Shown here piece by piece: positions 26,156-35,058 of a DNA stretch of 64,000 nt. How positions within the stretch are numbered: the first letter of the stretch is position 1; every line of letters starts with the position of its first letter. Source of the DNA: Desulfosoma sp. (lineage in GTDB: Bacteria; Desulfobacterota; Syntrophobacteria; Syntrophobacterales; DSM-9756); the NCBI GenBank assembly GCA_037481835.1, contig JBBFKW010000004.1, forward strand, positions 142,569 through 206,568. Direction: 5' to 3'. The notes under the pieces are model-generated. The model worked only from the letters and a program-made list of their open reading frames with translations, was not told the origin of the DNA and ran no database searches. Both the position numbers and the translations under genes were made by a program.

Positions 26156-27949
26156 ATGGACGATCTATGCCAAAAATTTCCCGATCAAGAACAATTGGAA
26201 AAAGAGCTCAGCGAGTTTCTTTCCAAGAAATACGGACGCCCGATCCGGGTGATTTCCCCCATGATGGTCGCCCAGCCCAAAAGCGCCGAATCCAAGAAAT
26301 CCGGCTCGGAAAACGTGCGCAAAATCCAGTTCGACATGAAACCTGAAGAGCTGGAAGCTTACTTGGATCAATACGTCGTCAAACAAGACCAGGCCAAAGC
26401 CATCTTGGCCACAAAGATCTGCACCCATTACAACCGGATCAAATGGCGCATGGAGCGGGGACAGCGAAACGCGGATCCCGTCGGGCGCATCAAGAATAAC
26501 ATCATCCTCATGGGGCCGACCGGCGTCGGGAAGACCTACCTCATCAAGCTCATCGCTCAAAAAATCGGTGTGCCCTTCGTCAAGGGGGACGCCACCAAGT
26601 TCAGCGAAACCGGCTATGTGGGCGGAGACGTGGAAGACCTGGTACGAGACCTGGTGCGCGCCGCCGACGACGACTTGGAACTGGCCCAGTACGGCATCAT
26701 CTACATCGACGAAATCGACAAGATCGCCTCTTCGTCCCACATCCTCGGGCCCGATGTATCCCGCACCGGGGTTCAGCGGGCTCTTTTGAAACCCATGGAA
26801 GAAACAGAGGTGGATCTCCGCGTTCCCCACGATCCCATCTCCCAGCTGCAGGCCATCGAACAATACCGTCGAACCGGAAAACGCGACAAACAAACCATCA
26901 ACACCAAGAACATCCTGTTCATCGTCAGCGGCGCATTCAACGGGCTGGCCGACATCGTCAAAAAGCGCCTCCAACAGCAGGGCGTGGGCTTCAAGGCCGC
27001 CGTGCACAGCCGCGGCGACGACTCCAAGTTCCTCCAGCACGTCAAGGCGGAAGATCTCATCGAGTTTGGCTTCGAAAGCGAATTCGTGGGGCGCCTTCCC
27101 GTGATCGCCGTCCTGGAACCCTTGGAAGTGGAAGACCTCTATCAGATCCTCAAAAATCCCCACAGCCCGGTCATCCAAGGCAAGAAGGAAGACTTCCGCT
27201 GCTACGGCATCGACCTCAAGTTCGAAGACGAGGCGTTCTGGACACTGGCGGAAATGGCTTTCCAGGAAAAGACAGGGGCACGGGGGCTGGTCAGCGTCAT
27301 CGAGCGGGTTCTGCTCGGTTTCGAAAAGCGGCTTCCCTCGACCAACATCCGCTCTCTGGTGGTGACCAGAGAACTCGTCCTGCATCCTCAGGAAACTTTA
27401 GAGGCCATTCTGAAGGATCCCGAATCGCCCGAACGGCGCAGCCTCTACGAGCGCATCGTCCGGGAGGAAAAGGAAGCCGTTCGTGACCAGGTGCTTAAGA
27501 AGAAAAAGCACTACGTGCAGAATTACCCGTTCGTCTTCACCCCGGGGCGCCTCGAATTGCTGGTGGACCAGCACGTGAAAACCGGCGAACCCATTGAGGG
27601 CCTCTTCGACGTCCTGATCACCTTGTACAACCAGATCAAGGTCTTCGAGGATGAGTTCCACGACAATCAAGGGTTCAAGATCCACTTCGACGACCACGCC
27701 ATCACGGCCATCATGTTCAAGGCGCTGGCGGAAGACAAGACGGCCACGGCCGTGTGCCGAGAAATTTCACGGGACTACGACTATGCGTTCCGCCTTGTCG
27801 CCGAAAGGAGCGGGCAGATCCAGTTCATTCTGCCCAAGGAGGCTGTGGATGCTCCGGAAAGCTACCTGGATCAGCTCATCCGCGATACGTACCGAAAGCA
27901 TCCCCTGCCCGGCGACGCCGCTTCGTCCGAGAAAGGATCCTCCCAATGA
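26156..27949 (+). CDS. ClpX-like AAA+ ATPase lacking the N-terminal zinc finger, with C-terminal extension
   Basis: GPTGVGKT, DATKFSETGYVG, IIYIDEIDKI, DVSRTGVQRALLK, VGF loop, EFVGRLP, TGARGL. Confidence 0.85.
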   Translation: MDDLCQKFPDQEQLEKELSEFLSKKYGRPIRVISPMMVAQPKSAESKKSGSENVRKIQFDMKPEELEAYLDQYVVKQDQAKAILATKICTHYNRIKWRMERGQRNADPVGRIKNNIILMGPTGVGKTYLIKLIAQKIGVPFVKGDATKFSETGYVGGDVEDLVRDLVRAADDDLELAQYGIIYIDEIDKIASSSHILGPDVSRTGVQRALLKPMEETEVDLRVPHDPISQLQAIEQYRRTGKRDKQTINTKNILFIVSGAFNGLADIVKKRLQQQGVGFKAAVHSRGDDSKFLQHVKAEDLIEFGFESEFVGRLPVIAVLEPLEVEDLYQILKNPHSPVIQGKKEDFRCYGIDLKFEDEAFWTLAEMAFQEKTGARGLVSVIERVLLGFEKRLPSTNIRSLVVTRELVLHPQETLEAILKDPESPERRSLYERIVREEKEAVRDQVLKKKKHYVQNYPFVFTPGRLELLVDQHVKTGEPIEGLFDVLITLYNQIKVFEDEFHDNQGFKIHFDDHAITAIMFKALAEDKTATAVCREISRDYDYAFRLVAERSGQIQFILPKEAVDAPESYLDQLIRDTYRKHPLPGDAASSEKGSSQ

Positions 27950-29136
27950 TCGGTATCTCCAAACTCTACTGCGGCACGGTGGAACCGTCCGACGCCCTGC
28001 GCTATGGACGGCACAGCGGCCGGCTCCCTTCCCATCTCCTGCAGTTTTCCCAGGACAAGAAACCCGTCGTGGTCTGGAACATGACCCGCCGATGCAACCT
28101 GAAATGCGTCCACTGTTATGCGCAGGCTTTGGATCGCGATTTTCCCGATGAACTGACCACGGCGGAAGGCAAGGCGCTCTTGGACGACCTGGCCGCCTTC
28201 GGCTGCCCTGTGGTGCTCTTTTCCGGCGGCGAACCGCTCCTCAGGCCGGATCTGGTGGAACTGGCGGCCTACGCCGTGGCCAAGGGCATGCGCGCGGTGA
28301 TTTCCACCAACGGGACCCTCATCACCCCCCAGGTGGCGCGTCAACTCAAAGACATCGGTCTGTCCTACGTGGGGATCAGTCTGGACGGCATGGAGGAGGT
28401 CAACGACCGGTTCCGGGGCGTCAAGGGCGCTTTTCGCCGGGCTTTGGACGGCATTGCGGCCTGCCAGGAAGCCGGCATCAAGGTGGGGCTGCGGTTTACC
28501 ATGAATCGAAGAAACGCCGCCGAAATCCCTGCGATCTTCGATCTTCTGGAATCCCACGACATCCCCAGGGTCTGTTTCTATCACCTCGTCTATGCCGGCC
28601 GCGGCTCCAAGCTCATGGAAGACGATCTCAGCCACGAAGAAACCCGCCGCGCCGTCGACCTCATCATCGACCGCACCGCCGATCTGCACCGTCGGGGAAA
28701 GCCCAAGGAAGTGCTCACCGTGGACAACCATGCCGACGGCCCCTACGTGTACCTGCGCATGGTGCGGGAAGGTTCGCCGCGAGCCCCGGACGTGCTGAGG
28801 CTCTTGGAAATGAACGAAGGGAACAATTCCGGCCGTGGGATCGGCTGCGTGAGCTGGGACGGCCAGGTCCATGCCGACCAGTTCTGGCGCCATTACACGT
28901 TCGGAAATATCCGGCAACGCCCGTTCAGCACCATTTGGACGGATCTGTCCAACCCCTTGATGGCCCGCCTGAAAGACAAGAAACGCTACGTCGCCGGCCG
29001 ATGCGCCCGGTGCCGGTGGCTTTCCGTGTGCGGAGGCAACTTCCGCGTGCGCGCGGAAGCCGCAACGGGCGATCTGTGGGCCCCCGATCCGGCCTGCTAC
29101 CTCACCGATGAAGAAATCGGCCTCGAGCCCATGTGA
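27946..29136 (+). CDS. ahbC: 12,18-didecarboxysiroheme deacetylase (Fe-coproporphyrin III synthase), radical SAM
   Basis: MIGISKLYCGTVEPSDALRYGR N-terminus, CNLKCVHC, TVDNHADG, SPASM cysteines; adjacent to hemB. Confidence 0.9.
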   Translation: MIGISKLYCGTVEPSDALRYGRHSGRLPSHLLQFSQDKKPVVVWNMTRRCNLKCVHCYAQALDRDFPDELTTAEGKALLDDLAAFGCPVVLFSGGEPLLRPDLVELAAYAVAKGMRAVISTNGTLITPQVARQLKDIGLSYVGISLDGMEEVNDRFRGVKGAFRRALDGIAACQEAGIKVGLRFTMNRRNAAEIPAIFDLLESHDIPRVCFYHLVYAGRGSKLMEDDLSHEETRRAVDLIIDRTADLHRRGKPKEVLTVDNHADGPYVYLRMVREGSPRAPDVLRLLEMNEGNNSGRGIGCVSWDGQVHADQFWRHYTFGNIRQRPFSTIWTDLSNPLMARLKDKKRYVAGRCARCRWLSVCGGNFRVRAEAATGDLWAPDPACYLTDEEIGLEPM

Positions 29137-29154
29137 GCGAAGGAGGTTCCCCCA

Positions 29155-30132
29155 ATGTGGTTTCCCGAGTACCGCCCGAGGCGTTTGCGACGGACGGAAA
29201 ATCTGCGGCGCATGGTGCGAGAAACCCGGCTCAGCCCGGACATGTTCATTTACCCGCTTTTCGTCCGCGCGGGACGCGGGATCCGGCAGGCCGTGCCGTC
29301 CATGCCCGGAGTGTTCCAGCTTTCGCGGGACACCGCAGCCACCGAAGCTCAGGAGGCCAAGGATCTGGGCATTCCCGCGGTCATTCTCTTCGGGCTTCCG
29401 GAAAAAAAGGACGATAGAGGCTCCGAAGCCTATGCTCCCGACGGGGTGGTCCAAGAAGCCGTGCGCTCCATCAAGGACCGGTGCCCGGACCTGGTGGTCA
29501 TCACCGACGTGTGCCTGTGCGAATACACCAGCCACGGTCATTGCGGCGTGCTTCGAGGCCGTGAAGTGGACAACGACCCCACGCTGGAGATCCTGGCCCG
29601 CATTGCAGTGTCCCACGCCCAGGCGGGGGCCGACATGGTGGCCCCGTCGGATATGATGGACGGACGCGTCGGCGCCATTCGCGAAGGACTCGACGCCGAA
29701 GGCTTCTCCCAGACGGCCGTGATGGCCTATTCGGCCAAGTACTGCTCCGCCTTTTACGGACCCTTTCGGGAAGCGGCGGAATCGGCCCCTCAATTCGGGG
29801 ATCGGCGCGCCTACCAGATGGACCCGCCCAACGCTCGGGAGGCCCTTCGAGAAATCCAGCTGGATATCGAAGAAGGGGCGGACATTATCATGGTCAAGCC
29901 CGCCTTGGCTTACTTGGATATCATCCGGCGCGTGCGCGAAGAATTCGACTGGCCCTTGGCGGCCTACAACGTGAGCGGCGAATACGCCATGATCAAGGCC
30001 GCAGCGGCCAACGGCTGGCTCGACGAACAGCGGGCCATGATGGAGGTCCTGACCGCCATCCACAGGGCCGGAGCGGATCAGATCATCACCTATTTCGCCA
30101 AGGACGCCGCCAGGCTTCTGGCCTCAGCGTGA
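29155..30132 (+). CDS. hemB: Porphobilinogen synthase (Zn-type)
   Basis: [45 protein letters not shown]. Confidence 0.98.
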
Positions 30133-30157
30133 AAGGCGCACCTGCCGAGGAACCTCT

Positions 30158-31282
30158 ATGCCATCCGATGAACCAACCAAAGACACCGCTTCCCACCCGG
30201 CAACGGCCCCGTCCGCCCACGGGCACGGGTGGACCCTCCGCCTGGTCGCGTGGGAAGTCACCCGCACGTGCAATCTCTCCTGCGTGCATTGCCGCGCCGC
30301 CGCCATGGACAAACCCTACGCCGACGAACTCACCACCGAGGAATGTTTGCGCCTCCTGGACGACATCGCACGCGTCGGCACCCCCATCGTCATCCTCACC
30401 GGCGGAGAACCCCTTCTGCGTCCGGACATTTTCGAACTGGCCGCTTACGGCCATGAAAAAGGGCTTCGGATGACCATGGCGCCCAACGGCACCCTGGTCA
30501 CCCCTGAAGCGGCGCGCCGCATGAAAGAAGTGGGCATCCAGAGAATCAGCATCAGTCTGGATGGAGCCGACGCCGAAAGCCACGACAGTTTTCGTCGAAT
30601 GCCCGGCGCCTTTCAAGGGGCGCTGCGCGGCATCCGCAACGCCAAGGAAGCCGCCCTGCCTTTTCAGATCAACACCACCATCACGGGGGCCAACCTTCAC
30701 GAACTGCCGAAAATCCAGGAACTCGCCGTGTCCCTGGGCGCCGCGGCACATCACATCTTCCTTCTCGTGCCCGTCGGGCGGGGCAAGAACCTGGAAGAGC
30801 AGACAATCAACGCCGAACAGTATGAAAAAATTCTCCATTGGTTCTACGAACAACGCGACAAGGTTCCGCTGCAGCTCAAGGCCACCTGCGCCCCGCACTA
30901 TTACCGGATCCTGAGACAACGGGCCCGGATGGAAGGGCGCCCGGTGGATCAGAAAACTTTCGGGCTGGACGCCATGACGCGAGGGTGTTTGGGCGGGACC
31001 GGCTTTTGCTTTATCTCCCATGTGGGCACCGTCCAGCCCTGTGGCTACCTGGAAGTGGATTGCGGCAACGTGCGACATCGGACGTTTCAGGACATCTGGG
31101 AGAACTCGGACGTCTTCCGGCGCCTCAGGAATTTCAAGGCGCTGGAAGGCAAGTGCGGTCGATGCGAATTCGTGAGAGTCTGCGGGGGATGTCGCGCTCG
31201 AGCCTATGAAGCCACCGGCAATTACATGGCCGAAGAGCCTTTGTGTTTGTACGAACCGGGACGCGTCTCCTCCGGCCCGTGA
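30158..31282 (+). CDS. ahbD: Heme b synthase, radical SAM/SPASM
   Basis: LRLVAWEVTRTCNLSCVHC, KATCAPHYYR, TRGCLGG, SPASM cysteines. Confidence 0.9.
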   Translation: MPSDEPTKDTASHPATAPSAHGHGWTLRLVAWEVTRTCNLSCVHCRAAAMDKPYADELTTEECLRLLDDIARVGTPIVILTGGEPLLRPDIFELAAYGHEKGLRMTMAPNGTLVTPEAARRMKEVGIQRISISLDGADAESHDSFRRMPGAFQGALRGIRNAKEAALPFQINTTITGANLHELPKIQELAVSLGAAAHHIFLLVPVGRGKNLEEQTINAEQYEKILHWFYEQRDKVPLQLKATCAPHYYRILRQRARMEGRPVDQKTFGLDAMTRGCLGGTGFCFISHVGTVQPCGYLEVDCGNVRHRTFQDIWENSDVFRRLRNFKALEGKCGRCEFVRVCGGCRARAYEATGNYMAEEPLCLYEPGRVSSGP

Positions 31283-31336
31283 CGGGATGCCCCTTCGCTC
31301 CCGAAACGGCCCTCCAGGGCCCCGGGCCCTTGCCGT

Positions 31337-32404
31337 TCAGGGACTGACCACGAAAACCTCGACGGCGAGCCACTCCTCCGGCTGGGCATCGGTTTGGACT
31401 TTCAGGGTCGTGCGTTTCCGCGACCCGGCAGGAACGGCTTCCAGCTTGGCAGAGACATCCAACACATAGCCCGGGGGAGCCTCTTGGGGCGTTGCGACCA
31501 CGTCCAAAAGCTCCCGATCATAGTCCACCTTGGTGATGCGGAACGCCGCGCCGGTATGGCTCACCACCAGCACTCTGCCCACCCGGTTCGCCATGTCCCC
31601 CTTTACCTTGCCGACAAGGAGACTCGTGGGCCGAATGCCGATGGGCCCTTCCACCATGCCTCGAACGGAAATCAACACCTCGGGTTTTTGCGGATGATCC
31701 GTGACCAATCGAATGAACCCCGAATAGGTTCCGCGCTCGGCCTGGTTCGTTACCACGACGCGGTATCGCGCACCTTCCGCCAGGGGTTCGACCTTGACCG
31801 AGACCTCCTTTTTCAGGTCGCTCTCCACTCGGAGAATATGCATGGGCGTCTTGGTGCTTTCCACTTCCAGGTCCTGAGGCTTCAAGGCCGCCGCCGGCCC
31901 TCGAAAGACCACCGTATCGCTCGGGCGAATGTCCACGAAGGGGACGACCTTGGCACTGACCGACAGGGACACCCGCGGGGTTTGGGGGTCGTTGCAATAA
32001 ACCGTCGCACTCTTGTTCACCGTGCCTCGGTATCCTGCGAGGTTGACTGACAGGGTCACTTTTCCCTCCCCGCCCGGAGGGATCTCCCGGTCAAACCGGG
32101 CCACGCTGCAGCCTCAGCCAGGGCGGACTTGTTCGATGGTCAAGGGGGCGTTGCCTTCGTTGCGGACCACGAAGTCGTGGGAAATGATCCCGTTTTCCAT
32201 GACTTCGCCGAGATTTGCATGGGGGCTTTCCACGAGGATCTTGGGAGTAGGTTGCGTCTTCGGGGCTTCCGATGCCAGAGCTGCCGAAGGTGGGCAAACG
32301 TTGGCGCCCCATGGAAGGAACAAGACAAGGACACATATGGCTCCCCAGACCTTAAGCCGATGTCTTGCCCCGTGTCTTCCGACCTCGCAACTCCCTTGCC
32401 GCAT
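31337..32404 (-). CDS. Exported DUF1573-like Ig-domain protein, probable selenoprotein (UGA read-through at codon 97)
   Basis: ORFs 32114-32404 and 31337-32104 are in frame and joined by TGA-GGC-TGC-AGC: HDFVVRNEGNAPLTIEQVRPG-U-GCSVARFDREIPPGGEGKV. This matches the DUF1573 pattern F.N.G..PL.I..V..sCGCt.......i.PG. Signal peptide present. Confidence 0.78.
32086..32100 (-). promoter_or_regulatory. SECIS-like hairpin
   Basis: CCCGGU-UUG-ACCGGG, a 6-bp stem with G in the loop, starting 14 nt after the in-frame UGA. Confidence 0.55.
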
Positions 32405-32572
32405 GGGCCTTATCCTTATTCGTTTTCGTTTAAGGAAGCCGTTTCCAGCTTACTGTTCGCGTTCGTTGGACTCACCCCAACCTACGTATAAAAATCCAGG
32501 GTTTGCCCGATCGGCCCCCATGCCCCGACCGACGGATCGGCCGGCGTCAGGGAGGCTCCAGCACCGTCGCCA

Positions 32573-33712
32573 TTAGGCCCCCGCCTTGGCCCCGTTTTCC
32601 GCCGGAGCCCCCTCCAGCAGTTTTTTCAAGGGGACAATCTGGATTCCTTCTTTTTCGAAAGTCTCGGCTTCCTGCTCCAAAACCTTCAACGTGATCGGGT
32701 GGGGATGGCCGATGGCCACGGCCTCCCCTTCCACCTTGGCCCGCCGAATCAACTCTTGCACTTGACGCCGGACGAAGGGTTCCGTCGGCTCGTGGTCCAG
32801 GAAAATATCTCTTTTCCTACAGGGCATGCCCAGCTCTTGGGCCACCGACAGCCCGACGCTGTGGGCGCTCGTGTAGCTGTCCAGGTAGTAAAAACCCCGG
32901 TCTTTCAAGTGCCGCAAGACAACCTTCATGGCTTGGGGGTCTTCGGTGAATTTTGAGCCCATGTGGTTGTTGATCCCGCTGGCGTAAGGGTTTTCCTTCA
33001 AAGCTTTGTCGATTTCGCTGACGATCTGCTGGGGCGTCATGGCGACGAGCAAAGCCCCTCGACCCGGATCGGTCTTGGGGTATCCACGGGGTTCCATGGG
33101 CATGTGGAGCATCACTTCGTGGCCGTGGGCGGCGGCAAGAGCCGCCACCTCTTCCGTGTGGGGCAGATGGGGAAGCACGGAAAAGGTCATGGCCAACGGA
33201 AGATTGATGAATTTTCGGGCGATTCTCACGTCGTGACCGAAGTCGTCGATCACGAGGGCGACTCGGGCCACAGGAGGTTTTTCCGGGGGTACCGGCGGTA
33301 CCGGAGGCCCCGGAGGCACTTTAGGTACCGAAGCCACCACGGTGTTCCCTTTGGGCCTATCCTCGTCACGGGACCCTTCCTCAGGGGGTTCGGCGGCGGA
33401 ATGCTTCGAAGACGAAGGCTTTTGCAAAGGCGCCTGTCCTTCGGCAGGGCGGGGAACCGCCATGGAAGCCGTTTCCTTTGGTTTCAATCCTGAAGCCGAC
33501 GTTTTGAAAGGATTCCCTTTCGTCCAGTAAAGGAGCGTCACCAGCAAAAAGAGGACCACAATCCACACGGTGACGAGCGGCAGGAACACAGTGTCCTTGC
33601 GCTGCTTCTTGGGGGCTCCACCCGACCCGGCGGCGCTCCGGCGGGACCTTTGCGCCGATGCCCCTCGCACGGGCGCCCCCGCCGGACGCTTTTTCCCCTG
33701 CGTTGAAGCCAT
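32573..33712 (-). CDS. Divergent polysaccharide deacetylase family protein
   Basis: TM helix and Pro-rich linker, LVIDDFG, MLHMPMEP, NNHMGS, LDSYT, DIFLD, IGHP; follows ctpA. Confidence 0.9.
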   Translation of the reverse strand: MASTQGKKRPAGAPVRGASAQRSRRSAAGSGGAPKKQRKDTVFLPLVTVWIVVLFLLVTLLYWTKGNPFKTSASGLKPKETASMAVPRPAEGQAPLQKPSSSKHSAAEPPEEGSRDEDRPKGNTVVASVPKVPPGPPVPPVPPEKPPVARVALVIDDFGHDVRIARKFINLPLAMTFSVLPHLPHTEEVAALAAAHGHEVMLHMPMEPRGYPKTDPGRGALLVAMTPQQIVSEIDKALKENPYASGINNHMGSKFTEDPQAMKVVLRHLKDRGFYYLDSYTSAHSVGLSVAQELGMPCRKRDIFLDHEPTEPFVRRQVQELIRRAKVEGEAVAIGHPHPITLKVLEQEAETFEKEGIQIVPLKKLLEGAPAENGAKAGA

Positions 33713-33735: not shown

Positions 33736-35058
33736 CTACTTGTAGCGCGTCTCCGCCATGATCCGATAGCTCTTGAGCAATTCCAGGGCGTGGCGCAGCT
33801 GATTGTCCGCATCAAGCCATTTTTCCGTATCCGACGGCTCCGCGACCGGCGCTGCCTTTTCTTCTTCCTCGGTTTTTCCCGGCGGGGCATCCATGTGCCG
33901 TGGCAAATCCTTTTCCCTCAAACGTCGCATGGCCTCTTCGCCGCCGTTTTCAGGGTTCGGCACAACGCGCTTGACCACGATGTCCGGCGTGATGCCCTTG
34001 GCCTGGATGGATCGGCCGCTCGGCGTATAATAGAGCGAGGTCGTCAAACGCACCGCCGATCCATCATTGAGCGGGATAACGGTTTGGACCGAGCCCTTTC
34101 CGAAAGTCGGCTCGCCCACGACCACCGCTCTTCGGTGGTCTTGGAGGGCCCCGGCGACGATTTCCGATGCACTGGCACTGCCGCCGTTGACCAAAACAAT
34201 GATGGGATAAGAATGGGGAGAAGCATTCTTGGTCGCTTCAAAGCGCATCTGCTGGTTTTCCCGACGTCCGCCGGTGTAGACGATGAGTCCTGAATCCAGG
34301 AATTCATCGGCGACGGCCACCGCCTGATCCAAGAGCCCGCCCGGGTTGTTGCGCAGGTCGAGAATCAAGCCTTGAAGGGGTTTGTCCTCCGCTTCCAGCT
34401 TTTCCAACACCTTGCGCAAATCCCGTCCCGTACCACTCTGGAAACTGGAAATGCGCACATACCCATAGCCCTTCTCCAAAGGACGGGTCCGCACACTCTG
34501 GATGGAAATGATGTCCCGGGTCAGTTCGAATTCCAGCGGCTTGCGCTGCCCCTCCCGCATAATGGTCAGTTTCACCTTGGTCCCCTTGGGCCCACGCATT
34601 TTTTGGACGGCCTCCATCAGGCTCATTTCCTGGGTGGGAGCCCCGTCGATCTTGACGATCTGGTCGTTGGCCTGAATGCCCGCCTTGTCCGCCGGGGTTC
34701 CCTCCAGCGGGGCCACCACCGTCAAGACCCCGTTGCGGATGGTGATTTCGATGCCAATCCCGCCGAACTTGCCCTTGGTCTCGATCTCCAACTCCTTGTA
34801 GTCTTCGGGGCGCAGAAAGGACGAGTGCGGATCCAGCTCGCGAAGCATCCCGCTGATGGCCCCGTAGATGAGCTTCTGGGAATCGACCTGCTCCACGTAG
34901 TGTTCCTGGACCAAGTTCATCACGTCACTGAACAGTTTGAGCTGCTCATAAACCCCTTTTTCGGCCCCCGTCGCCATGGCCCTCAACCCCATCCATCCGG
35001 CAAAGGCCACACACGCGGTCATGATCACCAAACGGGTTTTTCGGCTCCCTTTTCGCAT
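33736..35058 (-). CDS. ctpA: S41 family carboxyl-terminal processing protease
   Basis: LDPHS, PDZ GIGI, LDLRNNPGGLL, SASASEIVAGALQD, TFGKGSVQ. Confidence 0.95.
   Translation of the reverse strand: MRKGSRKTRLVIMTACVAFAGWMGLRAMATGAEKGVYEQLKLFSDVMNLVQEHYVEQVDSQKLIYGAISGMLRELDPHSSFLRPEDYKELEIETKGKFGGIGIEITIRNGVLTVVAPLEGTPADKAGIQANDQIVKIDGAPTQEMSLMEAVQKMRGPKGTKVKLTIMREGQRKPLEFELTRDIISIQSVRTRPLEKGYGYVRISSFQSGTGRDLRKVLEKLEAEDKPLQGLILDLRNNPGGLLDQAVAVADEFLDSGLIVYTGGRRENQQMRFEATKNASPHSYPIIVLVNGGSASASEIVAGALQDHRRAVVVGEPTFGKGSVQTVIPLNDGSAVRLTTSLYYTPSGRSIQAKGITPDIVVKRVVPNPENGGEEAMRRLREKDLPRHMDAPPGKTEEEEKAAPVAEPSDTEKWLDADNQLRHALELLKSYRIMAETRYK

Follow-up and report, generated by a model that had tools for sequence, protein, structure and literature searches.

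An OS_HP2/DUF1573 selenoprotein gene, very probably encoding an exported protein of three Ig-like domains, in Desulfosoma sp.

The name OS_HP2 was given to a then new selenoprotein family in a study of the metagenome of Olavius symbionts (Zhang and Gladyshev 2007, PMC1976440), in which the legend of Figure 5 mentions apical-loop guanosines that are conserved. The family returns in the GOS paper as the table row 'OS_HP2, pfam07610, UxC', where 2 homologues have Sec and 354 have Cys (PMC2398784), and two reviews, from 2022 and 2026, list it as 'DUF1573, UGC' (PMC9312934, PMC13188914). As these tables present it, OS_HP2 is a set of family-level rows, given without architecture, genomic context or a drawing of the SECIS. 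In the DUF1573/OS_HP2 literature retrieved by full-text search, the text and tables (figures and supplements aside) assign no function to these proteins and do not describe a three-domain form. A solved structure within the domain family is the Porphyromonas gingivalis protein 2qsv, from the Cys-form DUF1573 group, which has the same fold as the protein considered here and likewise consists of tandem Ig-like domains; unlike that protein, it has no Cys at the U/C-G-C position of its aligned domain. As a recoding signal, the fdhF-type SECIS of Escherichia coli is a close comparison, being likewise a stem-loop within the coding region that starts some 10 nt past the UGA and has a G in its apical loop.

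Here, we focus on a gene within a window of 64,000 nucleotides (the whole stretch of DNA analysed) from Desulfosoma sp., contig JBBFKW010000004.1. Positions 31337-32404 of the minus strand form a single reading frame, which starts at ATG 32404-32402, ends at a terminal TGA at 31339-31337 and is interrupted by one internal TGA at 32116-32114. Read through, the frame encodes 355 residues, with the sequence ...PLTIEQVRPG-U-GCSVARFDREIPPGGEGKV... around the internal TGA; the extent of the whole gene (31337-32404, minus strand) is given by the frame and its translation, by the match to NF041425 and by an alignment that is unbroken across the TGA in 30 orthologues. A preliminary description of this DNA had proposed that two apparently separate ORFs are one frame with a single TGA and a 355-aa read-through product, and translation bears out both points. 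The locus is almost certainly a real selenoprotein gene. It belongs to the OS_HP2/DUF1573 family, very probably with Sec inserted by way of a stem-loop into an exported protein of three Ig-like domains. In common with OS_HP2 as recorded in PMC1976440, PMC2398784 and NF041425, it has the Pfam domain, the U-G-C motif, a host among the deltaproteobacteria and a stem-loop that follows the UGA; it differs from the published rows in its two extra Ig-like domains (355 aa in all) and in its place beside yibQ-like and ctpA genes in Syntrophobacterales. Because the OS_HP2/DUF1573 selenoprotein family has been known since 2007, the result is an annotation correction and not a discovery. The novelty implied by the preliminary description is not supported, since a DUF1573 protein with U-x-C is OS_HP2, described in 2007, and the protein passes the NCBI model for that family.

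With C substituted for U in the query, residues 64-153 of the read-through protein match NCBIfam NF041425, 'OS_HP2 family (seleno)protein', at 112.3 bits (curated cut-off 100 bits). Pfam DUF1573 (PF07610) matches residues 59-153 with an E value of 9e-22 and 77.4 bits, against a cut-off of 26.1, and a HYDIN/VesB-like Ig domain of Pfam is also matched (E 2.3e-10). The DUF1573 match spans residue 97, so that a stop at the TGA would halve a beta-sandwich. The U-x-C that characterizes OS_HP2 is found here as PG-U-G-C and in the Cys homologues as PG-C-G-C, which agrees with the earlier proposal of a DUF1573-like domain at the TGA, with C-G-C at this position in other members. The AlphaFold model (mean pLDDT 85.8, residues 1-46 disordered) comprises three beta domains at about residues 55-154, 158-252 and 255-354, in line with the two further beta-sandwich-like domains that had been claimed, and places U97-G98-C99 on a turn between strands 88-95 and 100-104. 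Domain 1 (residues 59-153; 31946-32230, minus strand), which carries U97-G98-C99, is a DUF1573/OS_HP2 Ig-like domain of PapD/ASH-like type, as assigned by PF07610, NF041425 and VIA-align. Domain 2 (residues 158-252; 31649-31933, minus strand) is Ig-like, is modelled with pLDDT above 90 and lacks the U/C motif; domain 3 (residues 255-354; 31343-31642, minus strand) is again Ig-like in the model. Alignment with hhalign links domain 1 to domain 2 with a probability of 81% and domain 2 to domain 3 with 64%, and finds no match between domains 1 and 3; on this sequence comparison, domain 2 is a distant relative both of domain 1 and of domain 3.

The best single-domain fold matches to domain 1 are PapD-like/ASH/MSP Ig domains, a group that includes the C-terminal domains of Vibrio cholerae VesB and VesC, HYDIN, the MSP domain of VAP and pilus chaperones. 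In VIA-align, the VesB Ig domain reaches Z 11.8 (rmsd 2.0 over 96 residues), VesC Z 11.4 and HYDIN Z 10.8, while 2qsv reaches Z 10.8 over two domains; in a sequence search of the PDB, 2qsv was the sole match, and a weak one (profile E 0.0031). The domains of VesB, VesC, HYDIN, VAP and the pilus chaperones serve protein interaction or anchoring and are without the Sec/Cys motif, and the fold that they have in common with domain 1 says nothing on function. Foldseek against the PDB and a wide VIA-align search returned generic tandem Ig/PapD-like folds, none of them with a known redox role. At the N-terminus, residues 1-44 (32273-32404, minus strand) form a predicted Sec-type signal peptide, as judged from the sequence, the low-confidence N-terminus of the model and the orthologues. 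It has a basic n-region and a hydrophobic core, followed by A-L-A and then S at residues 42-45, the probable cleavage site; neither a twin-arginine motif nor a lipobox occurs in the N-terminal sequence. A comparable signal-peptide-like N-terminus was seen in 59/59 syntenic orthologues examined, and the signal peptide that the preliminary description had placed on the upstream part of the frame is thus upheld.

When 41 related genomes, among them that of the window, were searched in six frames, the protein turned up in 34 (by family, 8/8, 0/6 and 25/26). At the codon that aligns with U97, the best 30 orthologous loci have TGA in 23 cases, TGC or TGT in six and ACA in one. The same genomes contain short single-domain paralogues, in which the codon at this site is TGA in 33/40 and TGY in 7/40. 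Among 80 named public loci, mostly from Syntrophobacterales with some from Desulfobacterales and other Thermodesulfobacteriota, it is TGA in 75, TGY in four and ACA in one; the best of these, from a Desulfacinum MAG, has 51% identity. Several genomes are common to the 30-locus and 80-locus sets, which are therefore not independent. The protein alignment of the 30 orthologues is gap-free across the TGA and has its conservation peak at VRPG[U/C]GC.VA.FDR.IPPGGEGK. On the tree of these orthologues the non-Sec forms are scattered, with six changes on the best tree, at least two of them forced by well-supported branches; the window's own clade has seven members, all with Sec. A 98%-identical variant in contigs of an independent hot-spring metagenome study has the TGA intact and differs from the window gene in 19 codons, with 11 synonymous and eight nonsynonymous changes, five of the eight in the signal peptide and linker. 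Among the sequencing runs listed as containing the gene region, none is an RNA run. Judged from these sequences, the frame is under purifying selection on both sides of the TGA, and a single-TGA frame with its hairpin is more than chance. The alternation of TGA and TGY among orthologues and the intact codon in the independent contigs point to the UGA at 32114-32116 (minus strand) being read as selenocysteine (U97). With regard to other residues, all 30 three-domain orthologues keep C99, the alignment of the 30 sequences shows H76 and D105 to be invariant or nearly so, N82 too is conserved, and the second Cys is replaced, mostly by Ser or Thr, in 27/33 short Sec paralogues.

The genes around the locus are also conserved. 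Directly upstream on the same strand lies a yibQ-like divergent polysaccharide deacetylase gene (32573-33712, minus strand; Pfam PF04748, E 5e-82), followed further upstream by a gene for an S41 carboxy-terminal processing protease of CtpA type that contains a PDZ domain (33736-35058, minus strand; Pfam PF03572, PDZ and CtpB_N-like). The yibQ-like gene is directly upstream on the same strand in 26/30 orthologous loci and 34/80 named loci, and ctpA was found upstream in both sets wherever the flank extended far enough. From downstream, hemB and a radical-SAM/SPASM gene converge on the window gene; within flanks of 1.5 kb, the radical-SAM gene is downstream in 18/30 loci. Tight operon coupling with the yibQ-like gene was considered and is not supported, the gap between the two genes having a median of 133 nt and being 60 nt or less in 10/59 cases. 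The stretch that separates the yibQ-like gene from the window gene contains one terminator-like hairpin, and a promoter scan at the locus found no promoter-like site. Given the wide median gap and the terminator-like hairpin, the arrangement is a conserved neighbourhood and not a demonstrated operon. The neighbours of the short paralogues are heterogeneous: among 119 flanking ORFs of 20 paralogues, Pfam identifies DUF72 at three loci, APS kinase at two and DUF5661 at two, and MauE, MsrA, SOD and a thioredoxin-domain flavoprotein once each, and no consistent partner emerges for the 20. No gene for metal transport or resistance recurs among the neighbours at the window locus, at the 30 loci or beside the short paralogues.

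Among selenoproteins whose function is known, almost all employ Sec for redox catalysis. On balance we favour a periplasmic redox-active site at U97/C99 over a metal site, a preference held with modest confidence. The U-x-C pair would cycle between the selenol/thiol and selenylsulfide states. Precedent for such chemistry exists: the N-terminal domain of DsbD is a periplasmic Ig-fold with redox-active Cys, and the one-residue-spaced Cys pairs of Erv2 (CGC) and Mia40 (CPC) shuttle disulfides. By analogy these three would lend the proposed chemistry precedent and nothing further. In the short Sec paralogues, Ser or Thr in place of the second Cys follows the pattern of redox families tabulated as UxxC, UxxS and UxxT in review tables and those of the GOS paper (PMC2398784), and was counted for a redox role; the nearest solved folds, being generic Ig/PapD-like domains without a redox role, were counted against one. 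Since the second Cys is absent from most short paralogues, a U-C couple cannot be the general mechanism of the family.

The strongest rival accepts Sec insertion and differs in what the site does: U97 and C99, perhaps with H76 or D105, would bind a thiophilic metal (Cu, Hg, Zn, Ni or Cd), and the protein would act as a periplasmic metal chaperone, buffer or sensor. We consider this possible, if rather unlikely. Ig-like periplasmic metal binders exist, which speaks for it, as does the near or full invariance of H76 and D105. In published tables of deltaproteobacterial selenoproteins, several of the newly found ones are metal-related; the families include MerP/MerT-like, YHS and CobW-like proteins and a cation ATPase (PMC9312934, PMC13188914, PMC2398784), and these too can be set on its side. 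A two-ligand chelate is, however, a poor fit to the loss of the second Cys in most short Sec paralogues, and the lack of a conserved metal transporter or resistance gene nearby also weighs against a metal site. The probability left over by the redox and metal readings falls to some other role. To return to the redox reading, a more far-reaching proposal joins several parts: the three-domain OS_HP2 proteins would be a distinct, undescribed subfamily, working as a periplasmic Ig-fold selenol redox module in envelope maintenance and recoded by a two-hairpin SECIS. As a whole this is improbable. If true, the place of the gene after ctpA and the yibQ-like gene across Syntrophobacterales would reflect cell-envelope maintenance, for example by keeping envelope proteins, or substrates of CtpA or YibQ, in the right thiol state.

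The candidate recoding signal lies immediately 3′ of the UGA. Hairpin 1 (32082-32104, minus strand), the SECIS on comparative evidence, has a perfect inner stem at 32100-32086, CCCGGU-UUG-ACCGGG, two outer pairs and a G in the apical loop. The inner stem starts 14 nt after the TGA and belongs to the centroid structure of the local fold; a 6-bp hairpin at this distance had been noted in the preliminary description and was located at these positions. The family consensus places the start of the hairpin 1 stem 10 nt past the UGA; the window gene has mismatches at consensus pairs 24-42 and 25-41, which leaves six inner and two outer pairs. Hairpin 2 (32064-32081, minus strand), CCCUCC-N6-GGAGGG, covers the codons of I-P-P-G-G-E-G and is drawn from the RNAalifold consensus and from frozen synonymous sites. 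In comparison with the fdhF-type SECIS described above, the window hairpins have no sequence similarity to it, their register and loop size vary among orthologues, and a second conserved hairpin follows directly. Across the 23 Sec orthologues, normalized synonymous-site entropy is 0.56 in codons 90-99 and 0.52 in codons 100-109; the mean for the gene, taken over 150 columns, is 0.79. Frozen synonymous choices among these orthologues include GCC for A102 (21/22), ATC for I108 (22/22), CCT for P109 (21/23) and GAG for E113 (23/23).

Dinucleotide shuffles are as stable as the plain fold of the 76 nt that surround the TGA (z -0.11). Because the plain fold is uninformative in GC-rich coding sequence, stability was instead compared with a null made by synonymous-codon resampling, for hairpin 1 at +10 to +33 and for hairpin 2 at +31 to +54. 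By this measure hairpin 1 of the window gene has a dG of -9.9 kcal/mol and a z of -2.88. Mean values for hairpin 1 are -9.6 kcal/mol (z -2.06) in full-length Sec sequences (n=23) and -8.6 (z -1.88) in short Sec sequences (n=33), compared with -6.4 (z -0.76) in full-length non-Sec (n=7) and -3.2 (z -0.22) in short non-Sec sequences (n=7). For hairpin 2 the corresponding means, with the same numbers of sequences, are -10.7 kcal/mol (z -1.44), -10.1 (z -1.37), -7.9 (z -0.33) and -6.5 (z -0.32).

RNAalifold on the 23 Sec orthologues chose other small helices and did not recover hairpin 1, because its register varies between sequences; pairs were therefore counted in a fixed register. The pair counts used 45 of the 56 Sec sequences, leaving out four near-duplicates (L025, L040, L061 and L088) and seven with a one-codon deletion. 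The one-codon-deletion sequences, and divergent ones such as L081 and L086, still have a hairpin at the matching distance. With both hairpins taken together, 80.1% of cells pair and changes on both sides occur in 7/16 pairs; in hairpin 1 alone, they occur in 6/10. The covariation score for both hairpins is 0.138, a value that none of 500 shuffles reached, and slid controls scored 0.050-0.113. Pair 24-42 is CG in 11 of the 45 sequences, GC in 10, UA in nine, GU in three, UG in three and other combinations in nine. As this pair joins two third-codon positions, its covariation is at the level of the RNA and not of the protein. Hairpin 2 has almost no covariation and overlaps strongly conserved residues. 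Being nearly invariant, it draws on conservation only and is less well supported than hairpin 1; it may serve as a further element of the recoding signal. A permissive Rfam scan of 31200-32700 gave six unrelated matches, all far below their gathering scores. From the compensatory changes at synonymous positions and the greater stability in TGA than in Cys forms, a SECIS kept by selection is indicated just 3′ of the UGA, and the conservation of the hairpin that the preliminary description had anticipated is borne out.

The genome that contains the window (3.63 Mb in 38 contigs, 99.4% complete) has selA, selB, selC and selD. Profile scores are 626.9 bits for selA, 411.3 bits for selB and 377 bits for selD, all above curated cut-offs, and a tRNA-Sec (selC) with anticodon UCA scores 74.5 bits, also above its cut-off; selD of this genome itself contains an in-frame TGA. 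The mechanism of Sec insertion would be the standard bacterial one, in keeping with the covariation. Translation would start at ATG 32404; ahead of the hydrophobic stretch, the open frame has no other start codon. By direct reading, an SD-like AAGGA at 32413-32417 (minus strand) precedes this ATG by 8 nt. At UGA 32116-32114, SelB with Sec-tRNA(Sec) would be recruited by a stem-loop about 10-14 nt downstream, which it presumably binds; this stem-loop would be hairpin 1, perhaps aided by hairpin 2. Insertion of Sec would yield one precursor of 355 aa, which would be exported by the Sec pathway and probably cut after A-L-A at residue 44. The mature periplasmic protein would be a string of three Ig-like domains of PapD/ASH type, with Sec97-Gly-Cys99 in the first, on the turn between two strands.

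Translation table 11 divides the gene into ORFs of 96 aa (32114-32404) and of 255 aa from GTG 32104, both on the minus strand, as the preliminary description expected of annotation pipelines, and public sets do carry 255-aa relatives. The UGA might accordingly be a real stop, ending an exported 96-aa peptide, with a separate 255-aa protein initiated at GTG 32104 through the GAGG at 32115-32112. Table 11 yields exactly these two ORFs, the SD-like GAGG stands 7 nt before the GTG, and 255-aa versions exist in public databases; we nevertheless hold this reading to be very improbable. The split would cut one beta-sandwich domain mid-way and leave the 255-aa product without a signal peptide, and homologues with a Cys codon at the site are one continuous protein. 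The GAGG is present because the codons UGA-GGC create it, as UGA-GGN would in general, and with its 7-nt spacer it is probably what leads gene callers to the 255-aa start; the earlier statement that the downstream part lacks an evident RBS was too strong, since this GAGG precedes GTG 32104. Finally, the hairpin covaries and is weaker where TGA becomes TGY, which also counts against a real stop.

The UGA could also be decoded as Cys, or by near-cognate read-through, for example through a second SelB (276.7 bits) that is encoded about 1.1 kb from a Sec-like 92-nt tRNA. This tRNA scores 53 bits with the tRNA-Sec model and is called as tRNA-Cys with anticodon GCA. Both this pair of genes and the reported recoding of UGA as Cys by a non-canonical tRNA-Cys with SelB count in its favour. 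The anticodon GCA, however, reads UGY and not UGA, and the canonical Sec pathway is complete, so we attach very little probability to Cys decoding. The TGA might instead mark a pseudogene or stem from a mistake in assembly or sequencing; a lone in-frame stop, the expected look of such an event, is the sole point in favour of this reading, which is effectively refuted by TGA at the same codon in the 30-locus and 80-locus sets (75 of the 80), by its intact state in contigs from an independent study and by the mostly synonymous changes in the folded domains.

With selenocysteine insertion as the preferred reading, what the locus adds to the OS_HP2 record is modest: a three-Ig-domain subfamily beside yibQ-like and ctpA genes, covariation support for the SECIS, and the finding that public relatives are truncated. 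Knowledge of selenocysteine decoding is unchanged by the window gene, and its main value is correct annotation, since public 255-aa entries from this lineage, labelled 'hypothetical' or 'DUF1573', lack the signal peptide and the active-site half-domain. An exported selenoprotein is thereby hidden behind truncated entries, as the preliminary description had suspected. The three-domain architecture, the conserved neighbourhood and the covariation-defined SECIS provide starting points for experiments. All 12 public protein matches with at least 68% identity are 240-285 aa long and cover about 70% of the query. Among the truncated relatives is EDC27_2357 of Desulfosoma caldarium, which starts MARFDR..., just after the motif, and the full-length matches P0014-P0019, of 330-382 aa, are Cys forms and one Thr form.

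Nineteen differences are listed between the selenoprotein gene and its 98%-identical population variant, and window 32037–32230, a stretch of 194 nt that holds the TGA and its hairpins, contains none of them. An even spread would place approximately 3.5 there, so their absence is only a weak hint. Among close relatives, the gene is represented in public databases by 12 short proteins of 240–285 aa (mostly 255 aa), including P0012 (Desulfosoma caldarium EDC27_2357), which starts immediately after the U-G-C motif. Neither the signal peptide nor the whole of domain 1, of which half is missing, is present in these 12 entries.

At the Sec position, one orthologue (locus L046 on G030:C93; locus L114 on PXBG01000036.1) carries ACA (Thr), a two-base difference from TGA, and the database protein P0018 reads ...VTTG-T-GC... 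at the motif. Hairpin 1, the SECIS stem-loop just 3′ of the codon, is still very stable in this orthologue (dG −16.0); Sec may have been lost here only recently. Short single-domain OS_HP2 paralogues of about 155–200 aa are numerous in Syntrophobacteraceae genomes (G012–G040, loci L050–L089), with up to eight OS_HP2 matches per genome when full-length and short forms are counted together. A TGA is found in 33 of the 40 short paralogues examined, and 27 of these 33 have U-G-S/T (or U-A-S, U-G-L, U-G-V) instead of U-G-C. The Desulfosoma genome itself has the three-domain OS_HP2 gene only.

The selenophosphate synthetase of this genome is probably itself a selenoprotein, as judged from the single in-frame TGA within selD (contig C9:80257–81183, locus L009). 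Profile and tRNA searches also place a second SelB paralogue and a 92-nt tRNA on another contig (C21:4209–7326, loci L003 and L013). The SelB paralogue is 630 aa long and scores 276.7 bits with TIGR00475 (cut-off 242). The tRNA, approximately 1.1 kb away, scores 53 bits with the Rfam tRNA-Sec model and is called by ARAGORN as a tRNA-Cys whose anticodon is GCA and which has a long variable arm and an encoded CCA. No ORF lying between this tRNA and the SelB paralogue has a match in NCBIfam. The pair resembles the Sec-like tRNA-Cys and SelB paralogue reported from deltaproteobacteria.

Within the window, hemB (29155–30132, plus strand) is flanked by two radical-SAM genes on the same strand, one at 27754–29136 and the other, with a SPASM domain, at 30158–31282; the three (27754–31282) may belong to a cluster for alternative haem biosynthesis. 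In 18 of 30 loci, the SPASM gene and the selenoprotein gene run toward each other. Upstream, 168 nt separate the selenoprotein gene from the yibQ-like gene (32573–33712, minus strand), and this spacer contains a terminator-like hairpin with a T-run (32496–32510, minus strand), which suggests that in this genome the selenoprotein gene is transcribed separately from its yibQ-like neighbour.
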